Positions 7,566 through 23,434 of a stretch of DNA of 37,904 nucleotides are shown one piece after another. The notes under the pieces were generated by a model. That model saw only the letters and a program-made list of their open reading frames with translations, was not told the origin of the DNA and did no database searches. Origin of the DNA: a virus. Its lineage: Duplodnaviria; Caudoviricetes. Positions within the stretch are counted from its first letter, which is position 1. The number at the start of each line of letters is the position of its first letter. Location: positions 1 to 37,904 of the IMG/VR virus record IMGVR_UViG_3300032301_000607. One strand, given 5' to 3'. The position numbers and the translations under genes were made by a program.

Positions 7566-7859
7566 ATGAATGAACCCTTCACATCCTCAGAGGCAAAGGC
7601 CAAGGGCATTTTATCCGACCGCTACCCCGGCAAGGAGATGTCGAAACTCTATGCAGAGAACCGCAACCAAGCGACCATCGATATGCTCCGAGATGCCGTG
7701 TTCACTTTGATTACTAATGAGATTCCCACTTGCACCATTGCCCAAGTTCTTCGCAAAACCCATGGGGCGATTCAGTACCACCTACGCTGTCTTGAGGGTG
7801 ATGGAAAACTAAAGAGACGGAACAAGCGATGTCATTGGCGGGAGGCAGTTGAAGCGTGA
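7566..7859 (+). CDS. HTH DNA-binding protein
   Basis: TCTIAQVLRKTHGAIQYHLRCL. Confidence 0.6.
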   Translation: MNEPFTSSEAKAKGILSDRYPGKEMSKLYAENRNQATIDMLRDAVFTLITNEIPTCTIAQVLRKTHGAIQYHLRCLEGDGKLKRRNKRCHWREAVEA

Positions 7860-8586
7860 ATGAAAACCCAACCCACCTCGACTTGTTCAGCGGTATCGGA
7901 GGATTCGCTCTTGCCGCTAGATGGGCTGGATTTGAAACCGTTGGGTTCTGCGACAACGAACCCTACGCCCAAGCCGTCCTCAAAAAGCATTGGCCTAATG
8001 TCCCAATCCACGGAGACATCAAGGCACTCGATGGAACGGCATATCGAGGAGTCACTCTTCTCACAGGAGGATTTCCCTGCCAGCCGTTCAGTTGTGCCGG
8101 GAAGCAACGAGGCAAGGACGATGACCGCTATCTCTGGCGCAAATGCTCCGAGTCATACAAGAGGCAAGGCCAACTTGGGTCGTTGGTGAGAATGTTGCTG
8201 GAATCATCAACTTGGGACTCGAAAAAGCGTGCTCTGATTTGGAAGGGATTGGCTATGCAGTCCAACCGCTTGTTATTCCGGCTTGTGCCATTGGCGCACA
8301 GCACAGGCGAGACCGAGTTTGGATTATTGCCAACACCGACGGCATCAGACAAAGTTTATGGCAGGAAACCATCGACAAAAAGAAAAAACAACGCGCCCAA
8401 AACATCATTGAGAGATGTTCTTTCAGAGAAATTCTCGATAGATGGGAAGGGTGGAAGTCCACACCCTACATTTGTAGAAGCGATGATGGGATACCCCATA
8501 GGTCACACCGACTTAAAGGACTGGGCAACGCCATCGTCCCGCAAGTCGCATACCAAATCATCAAAGGGATAAGAGAGCTTCTATGA
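7856..8586 (+). CDS. C5-cytosine DNA methyltransferase, two-polypeptide overlapping-frame type, with a 1-nt frameshift near 8138
   Basis: Motif I LDLFSGIGG and IV GGFPCQPFS before 8138; VI ENV, VIII HRRDRVW and X LGNAIVP in ORF 8143-8586; motif IX-like PTFVEAMMGYP in the overlapping frame. Confidence 0.85.
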
Positions 8587-9974: not shown

Positions 9975-10460
9975 ATGAGTGAAAAACAGATCGGAATGGA
10001 ACTACAAAAAACGGTGAGGCTTTTAGACAAAGCCAAAGAAACAGCCATTACACAGATGGGGCAGGCCATCAGCCTAGCGGCCGATGCAGGGGACATCATA
10101 ATGTCGGCAGAGCTTGAGGGGCTAAACCTCCCAGAAATTTTAGGGGTGGGGGGGGTATCCGAGGAACAGGCTCGTCGCTTCAAAAGGGTGGCTAAGGCCA
10201 GACCCAGCCTCCACTCCCCAAGCCCCCAATCCCTCAAGCAGTTAGCCCTCTGGGTAGGTCTAATGCCCGACCCCATCGAGACCTCCACCCCCCGCCCCCA
10301 GAGGTCTTGGCATCACTACCTAGTGGCCTGTCGCCAATGGCTCACCCGCAAGAGCATACAAGACTGGTCGTCAGTACAGAAGGCCGACTTCGTATCCGAA
10401 GCTGAACCAATCGTAAGGGCGTTCCTCGAAGCAGGCGGGAAACTACCCCCAAATGGGTAA
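9975..10460 (+). CDS. Hypothetical protein
   Basis: ATG 9975 after AAGGA; last ORF before the large spacer. Confidence 0.6.
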   Translation: MSEKQIGMELQKTVRLLDKAKETAITQMGQAISLAADAGDIIMSAELEGLNLPEILGVGGVSEEQARRFKRVAKARPSLHSPSPQSLKQLALWVGLMPDPIETSTPRPQRSWHHYLVACRQWLTRKSIQDWSSVQKADFVSEAEPIVRAFLEAGGKLPPNG

Positions 10461-10585
10461 AAAAAGACAAAAAAAACACAAAAAAAAGACAAAAAAAACA
10501 CAAAAAAAAGCACACGAAAAAGACGCAAACACTCTTAAAATCAACGCAATGCAAACAAAAAAAAGGAAAAAAAATTGAAAAAAAA
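10459..10585. repeat. Phased A8-tract arrays
   Basis: (A8 plus GAC or CAC) 11-bp units at 10459-10509 (first tract A7); three more A8 tracts at 10557, 10567 and 10578. Confidence 0.9.
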
Positions 10586-10769
10586 TTGGGAAGAAAATTG
10601 TGAGGTCGCCGTCAAAAATTTAAAACCACCCCCCCCCTTTTTAGGAGACTTCTACCCAGCAAAAACACTAAAAGACAGGTTCCCACCGCGGCTATTTTGT
10701 GAGAGTTGACCCAAGAACCTTTATGTCAAACACTTGCACCACAAATCTTTTGTAACTTTTTTAACAACT

Positions 10770-11279
10770 ATGAAATACCCCTGCTTGCTTACCAAAAAAA
10801 TCAGCGAAATTTCTTCGGCAAAATATAACCCAAGAAAAATTACAGATGAGGCGATGGGTCGATTGACCAAGAGCCTAGCGGAGTTCGGAAACATCCAGCC
10901 GATCACTTGGAACGCTCGGACTGGGAATGTGGTTGGAGGCCACCAGAGGCTCAAGGTCTATAAGGCGATGGGCAAAACCGAGGTGGATGTGTGGGCGGTC
11001 GATCTGGACGAGCAAAAGGAGAAGGCGGCCAACATAGCCCTCAACAAGTTAAGCGGAGAGTTCGATATGCCGATGCTCAAAGACATCCTAGAAGAAATCG
11101 ATACTGGCGATCTGGATATGGAAATTACCGGGTTCGGGATGGATGAAATTGCTGTTATGATGGAGGCAACTAATCCAGACCCAAATTTCTTACCAGACGC
11201 AGAGGTGAATCAAGGTAAACTAGATGAAAAGTCGCCAGTTACTTGTCCTAATTGCAATAATGAATTTATCCCAAGCTAA
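10770..11279 (+). CDS. ParB/Srx-like domain protein with a C-terminal CxxC knuckle
   Basis: YNPRKI...SLAEFG..QPITWN...VVGGHQRLK...ALNKLSGEFD; TCPNCNNEF. Confidence 0.85.
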   Translation: MKYPCLLTKKISEISSAKYNPRKITDEAMGRLTKSLAEFGNIQPITWNARTGNVVGGHQRLKVYKAMGKTEVDVWAVDLDEQKEKAANIALNKLSGEFDMPMLKDILEEIDTGDLDMEITGFGMDEIAVMMEATNPDPNFLPDAEVNQGKLDEKSPVTCPNCNNEFIPS

Positions 11280-11952
11280 TAATCTGAAAATTGATTGGGC
11301 TACTCACGAAGCGGCAAAATATGCCTGCGAGAACTGGCACTATTCAAAAAGCATTCCTAGTGGCAAGATGAATAGATTTGGAGTATGGGAAGACGGAAAC
11401 TTTAAGGGCGTTGTTTTATATGGAAGACCAGCATTCCCATCGATAGGAAAACCATATAATCTTACTCAATTTGAAATTGTAGAGCTAGTCAGAGTCGCGC
11501 TAAAGGAACACAAAAATCCAGTATCAAAGATTATAAGCGTAAGTCTTAAAATTCTAAAAAGGCATAATCCAAAGTTAAGGTTAGTCGTATCCTTTGCAGA
11601 TAAAGGACAGAATCATTATGGTGGAATATATCAGGCATCAAACTGGTTATATGTGGGGGAGGGGGGTGCGGCGGTGCAATATAAACTAGACGGAGAGACT
11701 GTACATCAAAGAACGCTAGTTCATAAATTTGGAATTAAATTTGCGAGTCATAGCAGAGTCACAAAATATAACCCTCAAAGAAAATATAAGTATTTAATGC
11801 CCCTTGACGATTCAATAAAGAAACAACTAAAATCCCTACACAAACCATACCCGAAATGCGTATCAAGTGCTGATAGCGGCACGCTTGGCTTCCAGCCAAG
11901 AGGGGGAGGTGCAAATCCTACCGATACGCTCCATTTTCAAAATGCGAAATGA
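11260..11952 (+). CDS. mom: Mom-like GNAT-fold DNA modification protein
   Basis: HYS, GVVLYG, ELVRVAL, VVSFAD..QNH.GGIYQASNW.Y.G and KYKY motifs; between the ParB-like gene and terminase. Confidence 0.8.
   Translation: MNLSQANNLKIDWATHEAAKYACENWHYSKSIPSGKMNRFGVWEDGNFKGVVLYGRPAFPSIGKPYNLTQFEIVELVRVALKEHKNPVSKIISVSLKILKRHNPKLRLVVSFADKGQNHYGGIYQASNWLYVGEGGAAVQYKLDGETVHQRTLVHKFGIKFASHSRVTKYNPQRKYKYLMPLDDSIKKQLKSLHKPYPKCVSSADSGTLGFQPRGGGANPTDTLHFQNAK
11858..11933 (+). tRNA. Atypical tRNA-Gly(TCC)-like element inside the mom ORF
   Basis: 76 nt: acceptor GCGTATC/GATACGC, discriminator T, encoded CCA; D stem GTGC/GCAC; anticodon stem CTTGG/CCAAG with loop CT-TCC-AG; T arm GGAGG-TGCAAAT-CCT(A)CC. 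Confidence 0.85.
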
Positions 11953-12548
11953 TTACCCAAAAAGAACTCCGAGAAAAGTGGGGCATCGATGCGGGGCAGT
12001 TGTCTCGAATGGTAAAGCGGGGTATGCCCCTCACTTCCGAATCAGACGCTCAACGATGGAGGCTCGCAAACCAGAAGCGAGTGAGCAAATCACAGATAGC
12101 CCGGACACCATCCCCGACCTCATCAGAGCCATTAAAAGACTCGGATGCCGAGTCATACAAATCGAAAACCTCGCTTGGCAGATTGAATCGAGCGAAGCAA
12201 GCCGAGGTAGTTGCTTACTCATTGGTAGCCACGGCGGCAAACAATCAAAACCCAGTCGCTATGAGGGCGGCGGTGCAAGGATGGGGCGAAGCAAAAAAGC
12301 GAGTCGCAGAAGCAGAAATGGAACACGCTCGGTGGGAAGAAGTGAGCCGAGTCACAGTTCGGATGGGGGAAGTGCAAGAATGGATAACGAAGTGGCACGG
12401 AGCAATCAGATCGCTTCTGGATGCCCTTCCTTCGAGCCTAGCGGCCAGAGCAAACCCATCAGACCCAGAATGTGCAAAGCAAGCCATCCAAGACGGAATC
12501 AATCAAATCTTCGTTACCATCCAGAAAGCAGAGGGGGCGTTTAAGTGA
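11949..12548 (+). CDS. terS: Terminase small subunit (Nu1-like)
   Basis: N-terminal wHTH TQKELREKWGIDAGQLSRMVKRGMP, then a coiled coil and an LDALPSSLA motif; upstream of terL. Confidence 0.75.
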   Translation: MITQKELREKWGIDAGQLSRMVKRGMPLTSESDAQRWRLANQKRVSKSQIARTPSPTSSEPLKDSDAESYKSKTSLGRLNRAKQAEVVAYSLVATAANNQNPVAMRAAVQGWGEAKKRVAEAEMEHARWEEVSRVTVRMGEVQEWITKWHGAIRSLLDALPSSLAARANPSDPECAKQAIQDGINQIFVTIQKAEGAFK

Positions 12549-12777: not shown

Positions 12778-13079
12778 AACGCTCGCCCCTCAAACGCAAA
12801 ACCCCACTCAAGCGAGGCGGGAAACTGCGCCGAGTGTCTGCCAAGAGGCGAAAGCAAAACGAGGTCTATTCTGATGTGCGAGAGAAGTTTCTAGGCAACA
12901 CACCAGTCTGCCAAGTTTGCCAGAGCAAAATGGCGAGCCAAGTTCACCATAGGCGAGGGAGGTTCGGGGATAGATTAAATGAGGTAGAGTTTTTCTTGGC
13001 GGTTTGCTTCGAGTGCCATATTAAGATTCACATGAACCCAGCGTGGGCGTATGCAAAAGATTATCTGGTTAAGAGATGA
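12774..13079 (+). CDS. HNH-like endonuclease, terminase-associated
   Basis: CQVC...VHHRRGR...LN...VCFECHIKIH. Confidence 0.75.
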   Translation: MKRSPLKRKTPLKRGGKLRRVSAKRRKQNEVYSDVREKFLGNTPVCQVCQSKMASQVHHRRGRFGDRLNEVEFFLAVCFECHIKIHMNPAWAYAKDYLVKR

Positions 13080-14851
13080 ACATTGGGGCGTTCAGCCGAA
13101 GTTTCTTTGAGCCAAGAGAACAACTATCAATTCCCGAGTGGGCAGAGAAAAACCTCACACTCTCTGCGAGGGTAACGAACATACCCGGAGCGTATTCAAC
13201 AACTCTCACGCCCTATGTCCGTGAACCCCTAGAGGCTTTTGGCGATGATTCAATTCGGAGAGTGGTGTTGGTCTGGGGAGCGCAGACCTCAAAGACCACA
13301 ACGATTCTCGCTGGCCTAGCTTACAGAATCGCAGAACGCCCTTGTCCGGTCTTGTGGGTGATGCCCTCGGAACATTTAGCTCGATCATTTACAGAAACCC
13401 GCTGGCTTCCGATGGTGGACGATTGCCCAGCCCTAGCAAAAGAAAAGCCAGACAACACCGACAAGATCAAAATCCTAGAGCAACATTTTAAGCGATGCTC
13501 GGTATGGTGGGCGGGAACAAGTGCCTCGGCTCTTTCTAGTCGCTCGATTGCGTTACTCTGTATGGATGAGGTAGACAAGTTTCCAGAGCAAGCGGGTTCG
13601 GGGAGGGAAGCCAATCCGGTGCAGTTAGCGGAGGCACGAGTTAGCACCTACCCCAATCATTTAATCATAGCAACCAGCACCCCGACAACTGCCGACTCAA
13701 TAATCTGGGCTGAATGGCAGAAAGGGGATATGCGCTTTTATTTTGTGCCTTGTCCTCATTGTGGATTAAAACAAAAACTAATCTGGGGACAAGTGAAGTG
13801 GGATGAGGCGGCCAAGATAGAAGATGGCGTTTATGATTATGCCCTAGTGAAATCCTCGACCTACTACGAGTGCGAAGGATGCAAGGGCAAGATTCAAGAC
13901 GGCCAGAAAACCAAGATGCTCCGAGAGGGGGAGTGGAGGGCAACTAATCCCAAGGGCGAACCAGCCAGACGCTCGTATCACCTCAACGGCCTATACGCTC
14001 CGTGGGTAACATTCGGGAGCTTGGCGGTCAAGTTCCTGCAAGATAAGCACAGCGGGATTATCGGCCTGCAAGATTTCGTGAACCGAGTCCTAGCAGAGCC
14101 TTGGATGGAACACGAATCAGAAAAGATGCAGATCGTTCCCGGTGCTTATAAGATGGGCGAAGTAAGGATGGGCGATAAGCTGATTATGAGTTGCGACATC
14201 CAAGAGGCGGGGGGCTTCCACGCTTGGTGCGTTGTTAGGGCTTGGGATTTGGAGGGAAAACCAAGGCTCGTGTGGGCGGGTAGACTAGAAACTTGGGGCG
14301 ACATAAAGGCAAAACAAGACGAGTTTGGTGTTGAGGATAAGTGCGTTCTAATTGACTCGGGCGATCAAACCCGAGATGTATATTTGAATTGTTGCAAGAA
14401 CGGCTGGGTGGCGTTGGTCGGTTCGGACAAGACCAGCTTCTCCGAGATCGTGAACGAGCAGAAGGTTCAAAGGCCATACGCTCGAATTGCAAATGGCGAC
14501 CCCTTCTCTGGTAAGGCAGTTCAATCAAAGGCAGGGTGGAAATGGAAGCTCTGCCCGATTTGGCGATGGTCGAACCCATCCATCAAAGACATCCTCTCCC
14601 AGCTTCTCAAAGAGGAGGGATTTATCGCCCTAGATACGCCCGATGTCTGGAAGGTGCATATCGAAGCAGAGGTGAAGGTGAGAGTTAAGAATCCTATGAC
14701 TGGCAGGGAAAGACTTGTGTGGAAGCAAATTGGGAAGCATAATCATTTAATGGATTGCGAATGTATGAACATCGTGGGGGCGGCACTCCACGGACGGCTC
14801 AAAGTTTCACCCGCAAGTTTGACAGAGGAGGTTGAGAATGGCGAAGGGTGA
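13076..14851 (+). CDS. terL: Terminase large subunit, lambda gpA family
   Basis: TPY.RE, Walker A GAQTSKT, Walker B MDEVDK, STPT, CPHC/CEGC, DSG and HLMDC nuclease motifs. Confidence 0.95.
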   Translation: MNIGAFSRSFFEPREQLSIPEWAEKNLTLSARVTNIPGAYSTTLTPYVREPLEAFGDDSIRRVVLVWGAQTSKTTTILAGLAYRIAERPCPVLWVMPSEHLARSFTETRWLPMVDDCPALAKEKPDNTDKIKILEQHFKRCSVWWAGTSASALSSRSIALLCMDEVDKFPEQAGSGREANPVQLAEARVSTYPNHLIIATSTPTTADSIIWAEWQKGDMRFYFVPCPHCGLKQKLIWGQVKWDEAAKIEDGVYDYALVKSSTYYECEGCKGKIQDGQKTKMLREGEWRATNPKGEPARRSYHLNGLYAPWVTFGSLAVKFLQDKHSGIIGLQDFVNRVLAEPWMEHESEKMQIVPGAYKMGEVRMGDKLIMSCDIQEAGGFHAWCVVRAWDLEGKPRLVWAGRLETWGDIKAKQDEFGVEDKCVLIDSGDQTRDVYLNCCKNGWVALVGSDKTSFSEIVNEQKVQRPYARIANGDPFSGKAVQSKAGWKWKLCPIWRWSNPSIKDILSQLLKEEGFIALDTPDVWKVHIEAEVKVRVKNPMTGRERLVWKQIGKHNHLMDCECMNIVGAALHGRLKVSPASLTEEVENGEG

Positions 14852-20944: not shown

Positions 20945-22597
20945 GTGAAATATCCTATTTCAGTCTACCTAATAGCAGGAAATGAAGAAGAATACATTGG
21001 CCGATGCTTGGAAAGTTTCAAGCCCATTTCAGCGGAGCTTGTTGTCTGCATCGCTAGGGGGAATCTTGTCCCAGACAAAACAGAAGAAATTGCCAAAGGT
21101 CTGGGTGCGAAAATCGTTCACTACCAGAATCAAAGAACTGATTGGCCTCATATAGACGATTTTGCAACTGCTAGGAACACGGCTCTTGGTGCGTGTTCAA
21201 ACGAATGGTGTTTATGGGTAGATGCTGACGATGTGATGTCCGAGGATGGGGCGAAGGTTGTCGAAGAAGCTATTGACCTTGCCGTTGAGAAAGACGCTCA
21301 CCTCGTGGCGTTAAAGTACAATGTGGACAACGCCGGACTCATTCCCCTCCGAGAAGAAATCTCAAAGAGGGGAACTTGCCATTGGAAGAACCGAGTCCAC
21401 GAGATGCTTATCTCTAAAGAGCCAAATAAGACGATTGGCCTAGATAAGATTTTCAGAATCCATAAGCCTCACGGATATAAGGCCAAAAGTGCTGAAAGGA
21501 ATTTCAACATCCTAGCCGACACGCTTTCCACCGCCCCCAACGCCCTTTACTACCAAGCTCAAGAATACTTCTTATCGAATCAGATGGACAAGTGTATTGA
21601 TTCTAGTCTGCGAGCCTTAACCTTTTCAGAGCTAGAGGATACGCTTCGATATGATGTGCTTTGCAACTTAGGAAGAATTGTTTCAGAAAATGATAGGCTT
21701 ACTTACCTTGGGCAAGCCGTAGCGTTGCAACCAGACCGTAGAGAGGCTTATTTTTATATAGCGAATCATTGGTCTGGAAAGGGCAACTGGATTAAGGCTT
21801 ATGGAGCAGTTCGTTCTTGTATGACCTTGCATCGCCCCAAAGCCCACTACTGGAATCTTGTGGAGGCAATCTACAACTGGCAAGCGATGGACTTTTACGA
21901 GACGGCTTCGGTGTGTGTGGGAGAAGCTGGTGAGGCTGAAAAGATTAAGAAGATGCGACCAGCCCCCAAGATCAGCATTATTCACGCCACAAAGGGGAGG
22001 CCGCAGATCGCTTGGCAAAGACGCTGGCAATGGCTTTCCCTAGCCCAAAATCCACTAGAGGTTGAATGGTTGTTTATGGTTGATCACGATGAAGCCGTTG
22101 ATTACACCCCCCACCAAGCCATTAGGTGCAACCCCGGAGGCATCGTCAACGCTTGGAACGCAGGGGCAAAAATGGCCAAGGGAGAGATTATTATTCAAAT
22201 GAGCGATGATTGGACACCCCCTCGCCATTGGGATGCCCTAATTTCGACCGCTATGGGGGATACAGCGGGGGAGAAAGTGCTGGCAGTATCAGATGGGCTA
22301 CGAACCGACAAACTCCTCTGTATGGCTATTATGACGCAATCTAGGCTCAAGAAGCAGGGGGAGATGTTCTGTCCAGAATACCAAGTTAGCGATGGCATAT
22401 ATTCAGACAACGAGGTGACTGACCGAGCTTATGAGGATGGGGTGATAGTTGAGGCTAGACACATCCAATTCAAACACGAGAATCCGATGTTCACCGGAGG
22501 CAACCCCGATGACCTACTTAAAAACCACAATAAACCCGAACACTACCAAAAGGGGAAGGCAATCTATGAAAAACGCAAAGCAAATAATTGGATGTAG
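20945..22597 (+). CDS. Glycosyltransferase with GT2, TPR and second GT-A domains
   Basis: NEEEYIGRCL, DDFATARN, WVDADD and RVHE; TPR helices (QPDRREAY); second domain ISIIHAT.GRP, AWN.GA, MSDDW, YSDNE, FKHE. Confidence 0.85.
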   Translation: MKYPISVYLIAGNEEEYIGRCLESFKPISAELVVCIARGNLVPDKTEEIAKGLGAKIVHYQNQRTDWPHIDDFATARNTALGACSNEWCLWVDADDVMSEDGAKVVEEAIDLAVEKDAHLVALKYNVDNAGLIPLREEISKRGTCHWKNRVHEMLISKEPNKTIGLDKIFRIHKPHGYKAKSAERNFNILADTLSTAPNALYYQAQEYFLSNQMDKCIDSSLRALTFSELEDTLRYDVLCNLGRIVSENDRLTYLGQAVALQPDRREAYFYIANHWSGKGNWIKAYGAVRSCMTLHRPKAHYWNLVEAIYNWQAMDFYETASVCVGEAGEAEKIKKMRPAPKISIIHATKGRPQIAWQRRWQWLSLAQNPLEVEWLFMVDHDEAVDYTPHQAIRCNPGGIVNAWNAGAKMAKGEIIIQMSDDWTPPRHWDALISTAMGDTAGEKVLAVSDGLRTDKLLCMAIMTQSRLKKQGEMFCPEYQVSDGIYSDNEVTDRAYEDGVIVEARHIQFKHENPMFTGGNPDDLLKNHNKPEHYQKGKAIYEKRKANNWM

Positions 22598-22814
22598 GAA
22601 AGCAAAAAAGGGGGAGGATACGAGGGGGCTTGGTATAATTAAATTCGGGAAGTCTCGCCCCTGCAAAACCAAGTATGTAAAGGTTGATATCACCTATGAT
22701 AATAAGGCCAAGAAGGAACTTTTTGAGGCGGGGATGTTGGCATTGAAACACGACCCAGAAGCCGTGATTGAATATGTCATTAAAAAGGCACTTTGCGAGT
22801 TGGCGAAAAAATGA
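22566..22814 (+). CDS. Small basic hypothetical protein
   Basis: ATG 22566; stop overlaps the next ATG. Confidence 0.5.
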   Translation: MKNAKQIIGCRKAKKGEDTRGLGIIKFGKSRPCKTKYVKVDITYDNKAKKELFEAGMLALKHDPEAVIEYVIKKALCELAKK

Positions 22815-23434
22815 ATGGATATACAAAGCTGGCTTGCGGCCATCTTTATCAAGACCTAGTGACTGGGGATATCCCGACTTACTCAAAAGAGTATTCAGAA
22901 GAACGCTATGATAAGTATGATACAACGAGGCCGATGTCGGAGTTGCGATTTGCCCTATGTAAAGAGCTTTTCAAATTTAATTCAGTTTTAGATTTTGGCT
23001 ATGGGAATGGCGACTTCCTTTCTGTTTGTGCCGGTAATGGCGTTAGGTCTTTTGGGTATGATGTCTCTGATTACCCGCTAAAAAAGCCAGTAATCAAAAC
23101 AAGCTCCCTCTTTATAGACTGCGACCTTGTAACCTTTTTTGATTCAATCGAGCATCTTGAGACAAGAAACATATCCAGTTTCTTAGCAAAACTTCACACC
23201 AATCAAATCCTAATCTCTGTCCCTTGGTTTCACGATCTAGGGGATGATTGGTTCTACCATTGGAAACATAGGAGGGAGAACGAACACTTCCATCACTTCA
23301 CCGCCGCCGGGTTGTGCGAAGTTATGGAATCGGCTGGGTTCACCCCAATTTATCACTCAAACCCAGAGGATAAGATAAGAAAATCCGATTTGTCCTTACC
23401 CAATATATTGACGATGGCTGGCGTTAGGAATTAA
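22811..23434 (+). CDS. Class I SAM-dependent methyltransferase
   Basis: VLDFGYGNGDF, GYDVS, FFDSIEH, ISVP and EHFHHF; resembles glycan-cluster methyltransferases. Confidence 0.85.
   Translation: MNGYTKLACGHLYQDLVTGDIPTYSKEYSEERYDKYDTTRPMSELRFALCKELFKFNSVLDFGYGNGDFLSVCAGNGVRSFGYDVSDYPLKKPVIKTSSLFIDCDLVTFFDSIEHLETRNISSFLAKLHTNQILISVPWFHDLGDDWFYHWKHRRENEHFHHFTAAGLCEVMESAGFTPIYHSNPEDKIRKSDLSLPNILTMAGVRN

Follow-up and report, generated by a model that had tools for sequence, protein, structure and literature searches.

The mom homologue of the phage analyzed here contains, in frame and at its 3′ end, a 76-nt element (11858..11933, + strand) that folds into the cloverleaf of a non-canonical tRNA-Gly(UCC)-like RNA, and this RNA is probably Mom's own dedicated, non-ribosomal glycyl donor for the modification of adenines in phage DNA. 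We favor this reading, which was drawn from comparative sequence analysis, because (i) Mu Mom uses Gly-tRNA-Gly and its catalytic residues are kept in the homologue, (ii) the positions kept in the RNA equal the identity set of glycyl-tRNA synthetase (GlyRS) and the marks of translation are lost, and (iii) the RNA and mom are linked in both directions, the RNA being lost when a methyltransferase replaces mom.

The window (the whole stretch of 37,904 nt that was analyzed) represents a phage record of 37.9 kb that is complete and carries direct terminal repeats. The RNA lies in a ParB-mom-terS block opened by a ParB-like gene (10770..11279, + strand; phrog_620, E 1.2e-44; Pfam ParB_N, E 3.5e-05), for which the ATG at 10770 was chosen as the start (the ORF of maximal length begins at 10734). 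The mom homologue (11224..11952, + strand; PF25680, E 5e-50; phrog_1384, E 5.5e-56) likely starts at the in-frame ATG at 11260. Its TGA (11950-11952) overlaps the ATG at 11949 (as ATGA) of a terS-like ORF for the terminase small subunit (11949..12548, + strand; phrog_57, E 4e-05), and terL (13076-14851) is located downstream of terS. A long A-rich, low-complexity tract with poly-A runs (10453-10600) lies immediately 5′ of parB, at the site where the early genes meet this block. A 225-codon ORF in an alternative frame (11867-12544), which starts within the RNA element and overlaps terS, is probably no gene. Elsewhere in the window, a cytosine DNA methyltransferase gene (7856-8586) is split over two overlapping frames (7856-8572, matching positions 52-147 of phrog_363, and 8143-8586, matching positions 148-314), which may reflect programmed slippage, a frameshift or a mistake in assembly, and a two-domain glycosyltransferase and a separate methyltransferase (20945-23434) are encoded behind the major head protein, within the set of structural genes.

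The mom family of the window is that of GNAT-type adenine glycyltransferases. The PF25680 profile matched the window protein with 170.4 bits (curated cut-off, 27.1), and residues R90 and S101, which stand in invariant columns of the Mom alignment, align with R111 and S124 of phage Mu Mom (27% identity), both reported to be essential in the Mu enzyme (PMC13219725). According to the same source, Mu Mom transfers glycine from Gly-tRNA-Gly to the N6 of adenine, accepts all three E. coli tRNA-Gly isoacceptors and refuses glycine carried on tRNA-Ala, and the formation of 6-NcmdA in DNA from Gly-tRNA-Gly is described there for Mu Mom and two mined homologues. On this comparison, the window protein is a Mom-family enzyme with its catalytic residues kept, and it is predicted to transfer glycyl groups. 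The Pfam match stops at residue 211 (KPYPK; domain end at 11856), the same place at which the stop codon of Mu Mom falls (PYPK). In contrast to Mu mom, which stops there, lacks such an RNA, is under Com control and relies on host tRNA-Gly, the window frame continues after KPYPK for 31 codons, CVSSADSGTLGFQPRGGGANPTDTLHFQNAK, up to the TGA at 11950-11952.

The RNA element occupies 25 codons at this 3′ end of mom and runs from G 11858 to the CCA at 11931-11933, with 15 nt between the CCA and the ATG of terS. An earlier note on this DNA had every coordinate right, and its description of a domain ending at KPYPK, of read-through of a tRNA-like RNA, of the TGA/ATG overlap and of the 15-nt gap was confirmed. 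The acceptor stem contains the pairs G1-C72, C2-G71, G3-C70 and U4-A69, followed by the discriminator U73 and the encoded CCA end (11930..11933, + strand). The glycine anticodon TCC is located at 11891..11893 (+ strand), in a loop in which pairing of C32 with G38 is possible and leaves 5 nt. The 3′ strand of the T-stem carries an extra A (11920..11920, + strand) between the canonical pairs 50-64 and 51-63. The invariants of canonical tRNAs are U8, U33, T54-T55-C56 and an unbulged 5-bp T-stem; the window RNA keeps U33, but has A8 in place of U8, a TGC T-loop (UGCAAAU) and a bulged T-stem, which places it outside the canonical class. ARAGORN found no tRNA genes in the window or in 51 relative loci from L001-L080, the RNA scored 23.3 bits with Rfam RF00005 (below the gathering cut-off of 29 bits), and a scan of the whole window at gathering thresholds returned no Rfam family.

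Folding of the single window sequence gave z = −3.1. When 28 distinct 76-nt elements (that of the window among them), taken from the best 80 viral Mom-domain relatives, are aligned, which requires no gaps, the cloverleaf positions pair in 97.3% of 588 cells, both sides change in 14 of 21 pairs, and compensatory change is present in all four helices; pair 4-69 is C-G in 19/28 elements and U-A in 9/28. None of 500 shuffles matched this pairing and covariation, and slid registers pair in 34-44%. RNAalifold independently yielded the same cloverleaf with the bulged A, plus a 32-38 pair, which is formed in 26 of the 28 elements. The fold is real and goes beyond chance.

What the family keeps was determined from 116 distinct elements from loci selected by protein, and from 184 distinct Mom-linked elements that were partly selected by a DNA pattern leaving the anticodon arm untouched. 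Among the protein-selected elements, G1-C2 and U73 are invariant (116/116 each) and CCA is encoded in 91/116. The extra T-stem A is found in 114/116 and a full 5-bp stem around the bulge in 102/116, the unbulged register fits none of the 116, and the pairs flanking the A vary on both sides while the A itself stays. In the larger set, the anticodon loop contains CC in all 184 elements, and NCC in 139 of the 142 seven-nt loops, where position 34 drifts between T and A (TCC 66, ACC 66, CCC 6, GCC 1). Glycine tRNAs with A34 are rare in bacteria. U33 is kept in 50 of these 142 loops and U8 in 42/184; the T-loop reads TTC in 36/184, TGC in 64/184 and TGT in 8/184, and 78/184 elements (about 40%) are only 67-72 nt long, with a reduced D-arm. 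One element (L156:1501-1577) has TTC instead of NCC at the center of the anticodon loop together with a damaged acceptor stem, which may reflect either decay or a change of amino acid.

The determinants reported for bacterial GlyRS are G1C72, C2G71, C35, C36 and U73 (PMC10464925), all five of which are present in the window RNA. The same source describes for LpGlyRS a preference for purine 4-pyrimidine 69 and a requirement for an L-shape; the window has U4-A69, contrary to this preference (reported for LpGlyRS only), and this pair, together with the reduced D-arm of the short class, suggests that charging may be weak. Since the bulged A sits among pairs 49-65, 50-64 and 51-63, which are reported to set EF-Tu affinity (PMC3239215), we predict that it acts as an EF-Tu antideterminant. 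Read against these determinants, the conserved positions are the marks of glycine loading and the lost positions are the marks of translation.

The association of the RNA with mom was examined from both sides. A model built from the 28 elements found a match in 79/80 Mom loci (the training sequences match by construction), independently, in 78/80 loci from a second Mom subfamily (selected by protein), and in 8/14 loci of a third, 5′-class subfamily, the remaining 6/14 being without the element. Conversely, a DNA pattern composed of the T-arm and the acceptor end, and using no protein information, has an estimated ~1,400 matching stretches in IMG/VR; among the 120 matches listed, Mom adjoins 66/67 long-flank elements and 45/55 short-flank ones. 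A model search of 61 genomes yielded four new matches, all of them within Mom ORFs. Among 185,579 species genomes, the T-arm pattern occurs in only about 370 stretches. The association with Mom is less strict in bacterial genome contigs, where 39 long-flank matches comprise 21 beside a same-strand Mom, 2 beside an antisense Mom, 2 that resemble remains of prophages, 7 that resemble chance matches and 7 stand-alone copies. The matches L300, L302, L304, L326, L332, L336 and L340 were rejected as chance pattern matches, with no score or less than 25 bits with the model.

The stand-alone cases are seven good bulged copies in bacterial contigs with no mom within 1.5 kb (L305:1452-1529, L314:1454-1529, L323:1501-1577, L329:1501-1576, L344:1456-1529, L358:1501-1576 and L367:1501-1575). 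The L329 copy adjoins an RtcB-like fragment. Such copies may derive from former prophages or may serve other glycyltransferases as carriers; Mom is encoded elsewhere in 2/5 genomes with a mom-less copy (these genomes being incomplete). Tandem pairs of elements behind one mom (L119, L170/L461, L206, L464), and loci with two successive mom homologues (L114, L130), were also observed.

Among cultured phages, 13 of 17 named mom regions gave no match with the model, including those of Mu and of phiEf11, the latter despite 48-50% identity, and the element is absent from the mom region of halovirus HGTV-1, which served as an archaeal check of the discriminator. Salinibacter phage B2_17 carries a full family member directly after the mom stop, annotated in GenBank as tRNA-Gly; it was the only real match when two elements were compared with cultured phages by blastn, and its mom (L412:1201-1832) is frameshifted in the record, where the annotation gives a hypothetical protein of reduced length. 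An unbulged form containing the mom stop is present in Arthrobacter phages Sonny and Wyborn, and Microbacterium phage Appa has instead an ordinary tRNA-Gly(CCC) convergent on mom. The RNA is therefore optional for Mom, being absent from Mu, from most cultured-phage mom regions and from part of the 5′-class subfamily.

The 3′ tail of mom is conserved as an RNA and not as a peptide, judging from the pattern of variation. Codon-position entropies within the element are 0.77/0.84/0.92, versus 0.81/0.57/1.48 in the preceding 25 codons (n = 42), and all three frames are used across the CCA end (107/18/8). The mom frame is nevertheless kept open: it contains stops in 16/150 elements of the 3′ class, versus 69 and 110 in the two other frames, and a stop falls within the frame in 1/56 elements versus 13.4 expected (from resampled columns, uncorrected for kinship). 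Homologs do not usually stop before the RNA, since in 146/150 elements of the 3′ class the stop lies 3′ of G1 (the RNA is read through in 133, contains the stop in 13 and comes after it in 4). In these respects the analysis bore out the earlier note, which had proposed a check of whether the tails are kept as RNA structure and had pointed out that cutting at 11858 would leave a stop-less mom message.

From this arrangement the earlier note had derived a processing switch, in which the cloverleaf is a cis processing signal whose cleavage generates a non-stop message that caps Mom and couples modification to terS and packaging. The same model has already been published for selC nested in selB (PMC8124441), and it agrees with the open frame and the stops 3′ of G1, with the fact that 33/34 elements at the mom 5′ end also lie inside the mom frame, and with the identity of the next gene, which belongs to the terS family in 36/47 cases tested. 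We consider it unlikely as the main purpose of the RNA. The layouts provide one reason: of the 184 elements, 150 belong to the 3′ class and 34 to the 5′ class, and in the second subfamily (59 distinct elements) 34 read through, 8 have the stop inside, 6 have it before the RNA and 11 are antisense. The antisense and post-stop arrangements are unable to yield a non-stop mom message and, together with the 5′ layout, prevent a terS switch from being the conserved function. The existence of four layouts (3′ nested, 5′ nested, post-stop and antisense) rather points to a product acting in trans. Moreover, a mere cleavage signal requires neither C35-C36 nor the glycine identity set. The antisense arrangement (17/78 loci of the second subfamily) is represented by L488-L512 (17 loci), and it was also seen at L333 and L359; its elements often have a 4-bp bulged T-stem and no encoded CCA, and the mom stop (TAG) is often formed by the RNA 3′ end on the other strand.

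The proposed tie to packaging found no support in a comparison of terS loci. Among 80 terS relatives (74-99% identity), the RNA is present in exactly 6, those with mom; the other 74 comprise 34 with a methyltransferase-type upstream region (ParB-methyltransferase), 39 with ParB alone and 1 without upstream DNA (for this assignment of upstream types, 7 proteins were confirmed with Pfam). The RNA thus tracks mom and not terS, which indicates that modification genes replace one another in the position ahead of terS and that terS does not depend on the cloverleaf. In two relatives (L223:548-1291 and L228:1782-2498), terS is 95-96% identical and Mom 50-51% identical to those of the window, and the RNA is identical at 74/76 positions; as read from these sequences, the exchange of mom alleles extends as far as the RNA boundary, and crossovers near the element do occur. 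Six metatranscriptome runs contain only 5-11% of the window words, with contigs that cover parB and terS of relatives and leave mom and the RNA uncovered, and three contigs diverge at 11948 into methyltransferase-type upstream sequence.

The position of the mom stop can be explained otherwise. It lies within −20 to +15 nt of the next start in 83/97 loci, with 39 direct overlaps, these being automatic and noisy start calls from which the miscalled L001 and L003 were omitted (47/103 called ORFs were tested for the identity of the next gene). Most simply, the open frame keeps the mom stop beside the next start, which would permit translational coupling, and allows the genes to overlap. Coupling across a strong fold would account for the placement of the stop without a switch, although the non-stop model fits it as well.

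A sigma-70-like site inside mom (11804..11833, + strand; TTGACG, 18 nt, TAAAAT; 10/12 consensus matches), a possible internal promoter, ends 24 nt 5′ of the RNA; it may provide a separate supply of the RNA, which would also speak against the switch. Sites with at least 9/12 matches occur within 90 nt upstream in 31/135 loci of the 3′ class versus 23/405 control windows, and the Leu codon making TTGA is CTT in 28/49 cases versus 124/536 for Leu-Asp pairs elsewhere (p 1.4e-6, without correction for kinship), but the −10 box is not well preserved and tracks conserved residues. On the whole, the interpretation in the earlier note was sound as to RNA-level conservation and the open frame and lacked support for the link to packaging; it found the nested tRNA and missed the main point, namely that the co-substrate of Mom is Gly-tRNA-Gly.

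The RNA might instead be a general phage tRNA-Gly that boosts translation or replaces a nuclease-cut host tRNA-Gly, with Mom merely drawing on it. A complete cloverleaf with CCA and the stand-alone genome copies would suit such a role, as would the ordinary tRNA-Gly beside mom in Appa and the tRNA-Gly annotation in B2_17. We nevertheless find it quite improbable, given that U33, U8, TTC and the D-arm are unconserved, position 34 is free, the 32-38 pair narrows the loop, the T-stem is bulged, and the RNA is gained and lost with mom. Very improbable, in our estimation, is the reading that the element was copied from a tRNA-Gly gene of a host and is a vestigial attP site or a landmark for recombination, with no RNA function. 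Crossovers evidently take place nearby (the two relatives with Mom at 50-51% and an element at 74/76), and mom modules are reported to travel on integrative islands (PMC3146451); against this stand the compensatory changes in four helices, the presence of the whole 5′ half, the absence of integrase families from the PHROGs matches of the 44 window proteins, and the rarity of the T-arm pattern in species genomes (the 370 stretches given above), which indicates that the element is no copy of a host tRNA. It is hardly credible that the tail functions as a C-terminal peptide of Mom, with an incidental RNA fold, because the open frame and the recurrent GG..PT..L motif are outweighed by the missing codon-position signature, the 3′ end read in three frames, the occurrence of the same sequence at the N-terminus of other Moms and the end of Mu Mom at PYPK.

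If the RNA is a dedicated glycyl donor, it would be transcribed late, either as part of the operon or starting at the promoter-like site (11804-11833), and the 76-mer would be released from the transcript by RNase P and 3′ processing. The host glycyl-tRNA synthetase would charge the released RNA, which, being poorly bound by EF-Tu and the ribosome, would escape translation, and Mom would move the glycyl group from it to adenines of phage DNA. A choice between enzyme and tRNA for each transcript might then arise as a side effect of nesting, which is possible, though we would sooner expect that it does not. In Staphylococcus, EF-Tu is reported to sequester ordinary Gly-tRNA-Gly from FmhB, and dedicated tRNAs escape this (PMC7826273); such inhibition of an analogous enzyme would be a reason to evolve a carrier of this kind. 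More tentatively, we suggest that the Mom clades concerned may operate a one-gene, two-part system, in which the bulge hides the carrier from EF-Tu, Mom prefers its own carrier, and nesting fixes the ratio of the two.

The RNA family has very likely been seen before. A 76-bp tRNA-Gly-like 'pseudo-tRNA' within mom, for which no function is given in the relevant passages, was described in the ssrA islands of Dehalococcoides (McMurdie 2011, PMC3146451), at a time when the tRNA co-substrate of Mom was not yet known. The two loci share a length of 76 nt, a location inside mom after parB, a DCC anticodon and a 5-nt loop, and primer REC_003eF of that study, read in reverse, matches the 3′ end of our RNA family including the extra A. 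Judged by length, nesting, anticodon and primer, the Dehalococcoides locus very likely belongs to the same RNA family. The Dehalococcoides copies are described from integrative islands, where they fall within the initial 150 bp of mom (5′ class), whereas the window copy belongs to a phage and occupies the 3′ end of mom, ahead of terS.

The closest functional parallel is provided by the staphylococcal tRNA-Gly species NP1-NP3 (PMC7826273), which are described as having glycine identity, a TGC T-loop and a narrowed anticodon loop, and as being paired with a GNAT-fold glycyltransferase (there FmhB/FemA/FemB); the proposed logic is the same. The differences are that NP1-NP3 are stand-alone chromosomal genes serving peptidoglycan synthesis, reported as staphylococcus-specific and biochemically proven, and that their avoidance of EF-Tu is sequence-based, in contrast to the apparent bulge predicted to act in the phage RNA. 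The phage RNA has the TGC/TGT T-loop and the extra anticodon-stem pair of that group and stands outside the staphylococcal Fem lineage. By analogy, it would work like NP1-NP3 and is no member of the group, being phage-borne and mom-linked. With regard to gene arrangement, the parallel is selC in selB of Alphaproteobacteria (PMC8124441), where a tRNA lies within the 3′ end of the gene encoding the protein it serves, the stop overlaps the next start, and partial-overlap, pre-stop and antisense variants occur. The window shares the nesting of a whole tRNA-like RNA in an ORF whose stop overlaps the next start; selB-selC differs in that it comprises a translation tRNA and an elongation factor in cells, with no 5′-nested class described. 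In the literature searched, no functional link between Mom and an encoded tRNA was found, and keyword look-ups in a 2023 preprint, a jumbo-phage review and Mukai 2017 returned no Mom-tRNA link.

How Mom manages while drawing Gly-tRNA-Gly away from host translation is a question that Silva et al. (2026) did not settle. The RNA described here offers a direct candidate answer, namely that many Mom phages bring a carrier built for charging and not for translation. Its use as a donor would extend non-proteogenic tRNA-Gly from the staphylococcal cell wall to viral DNA modification, would give a function to the pseudo-tRNA of 2011, and would explain the odd N- and C-terminal extensions of many Mom proteins. 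The bulged T-stem would be flagged as a natural EF-Tu antideterminant, and the locus would represent, after selB-selC, a second example of a gene that harbors a tRNA used by its own protein product. If the two-part system is true, these elements would constitute a large, unannotated class of viral non-ribosomal tRNAs (the ~1,400 IMG/VR stretches matching one strict pattern) and would provide a natural EF-Tu-orthogonal scaffold.
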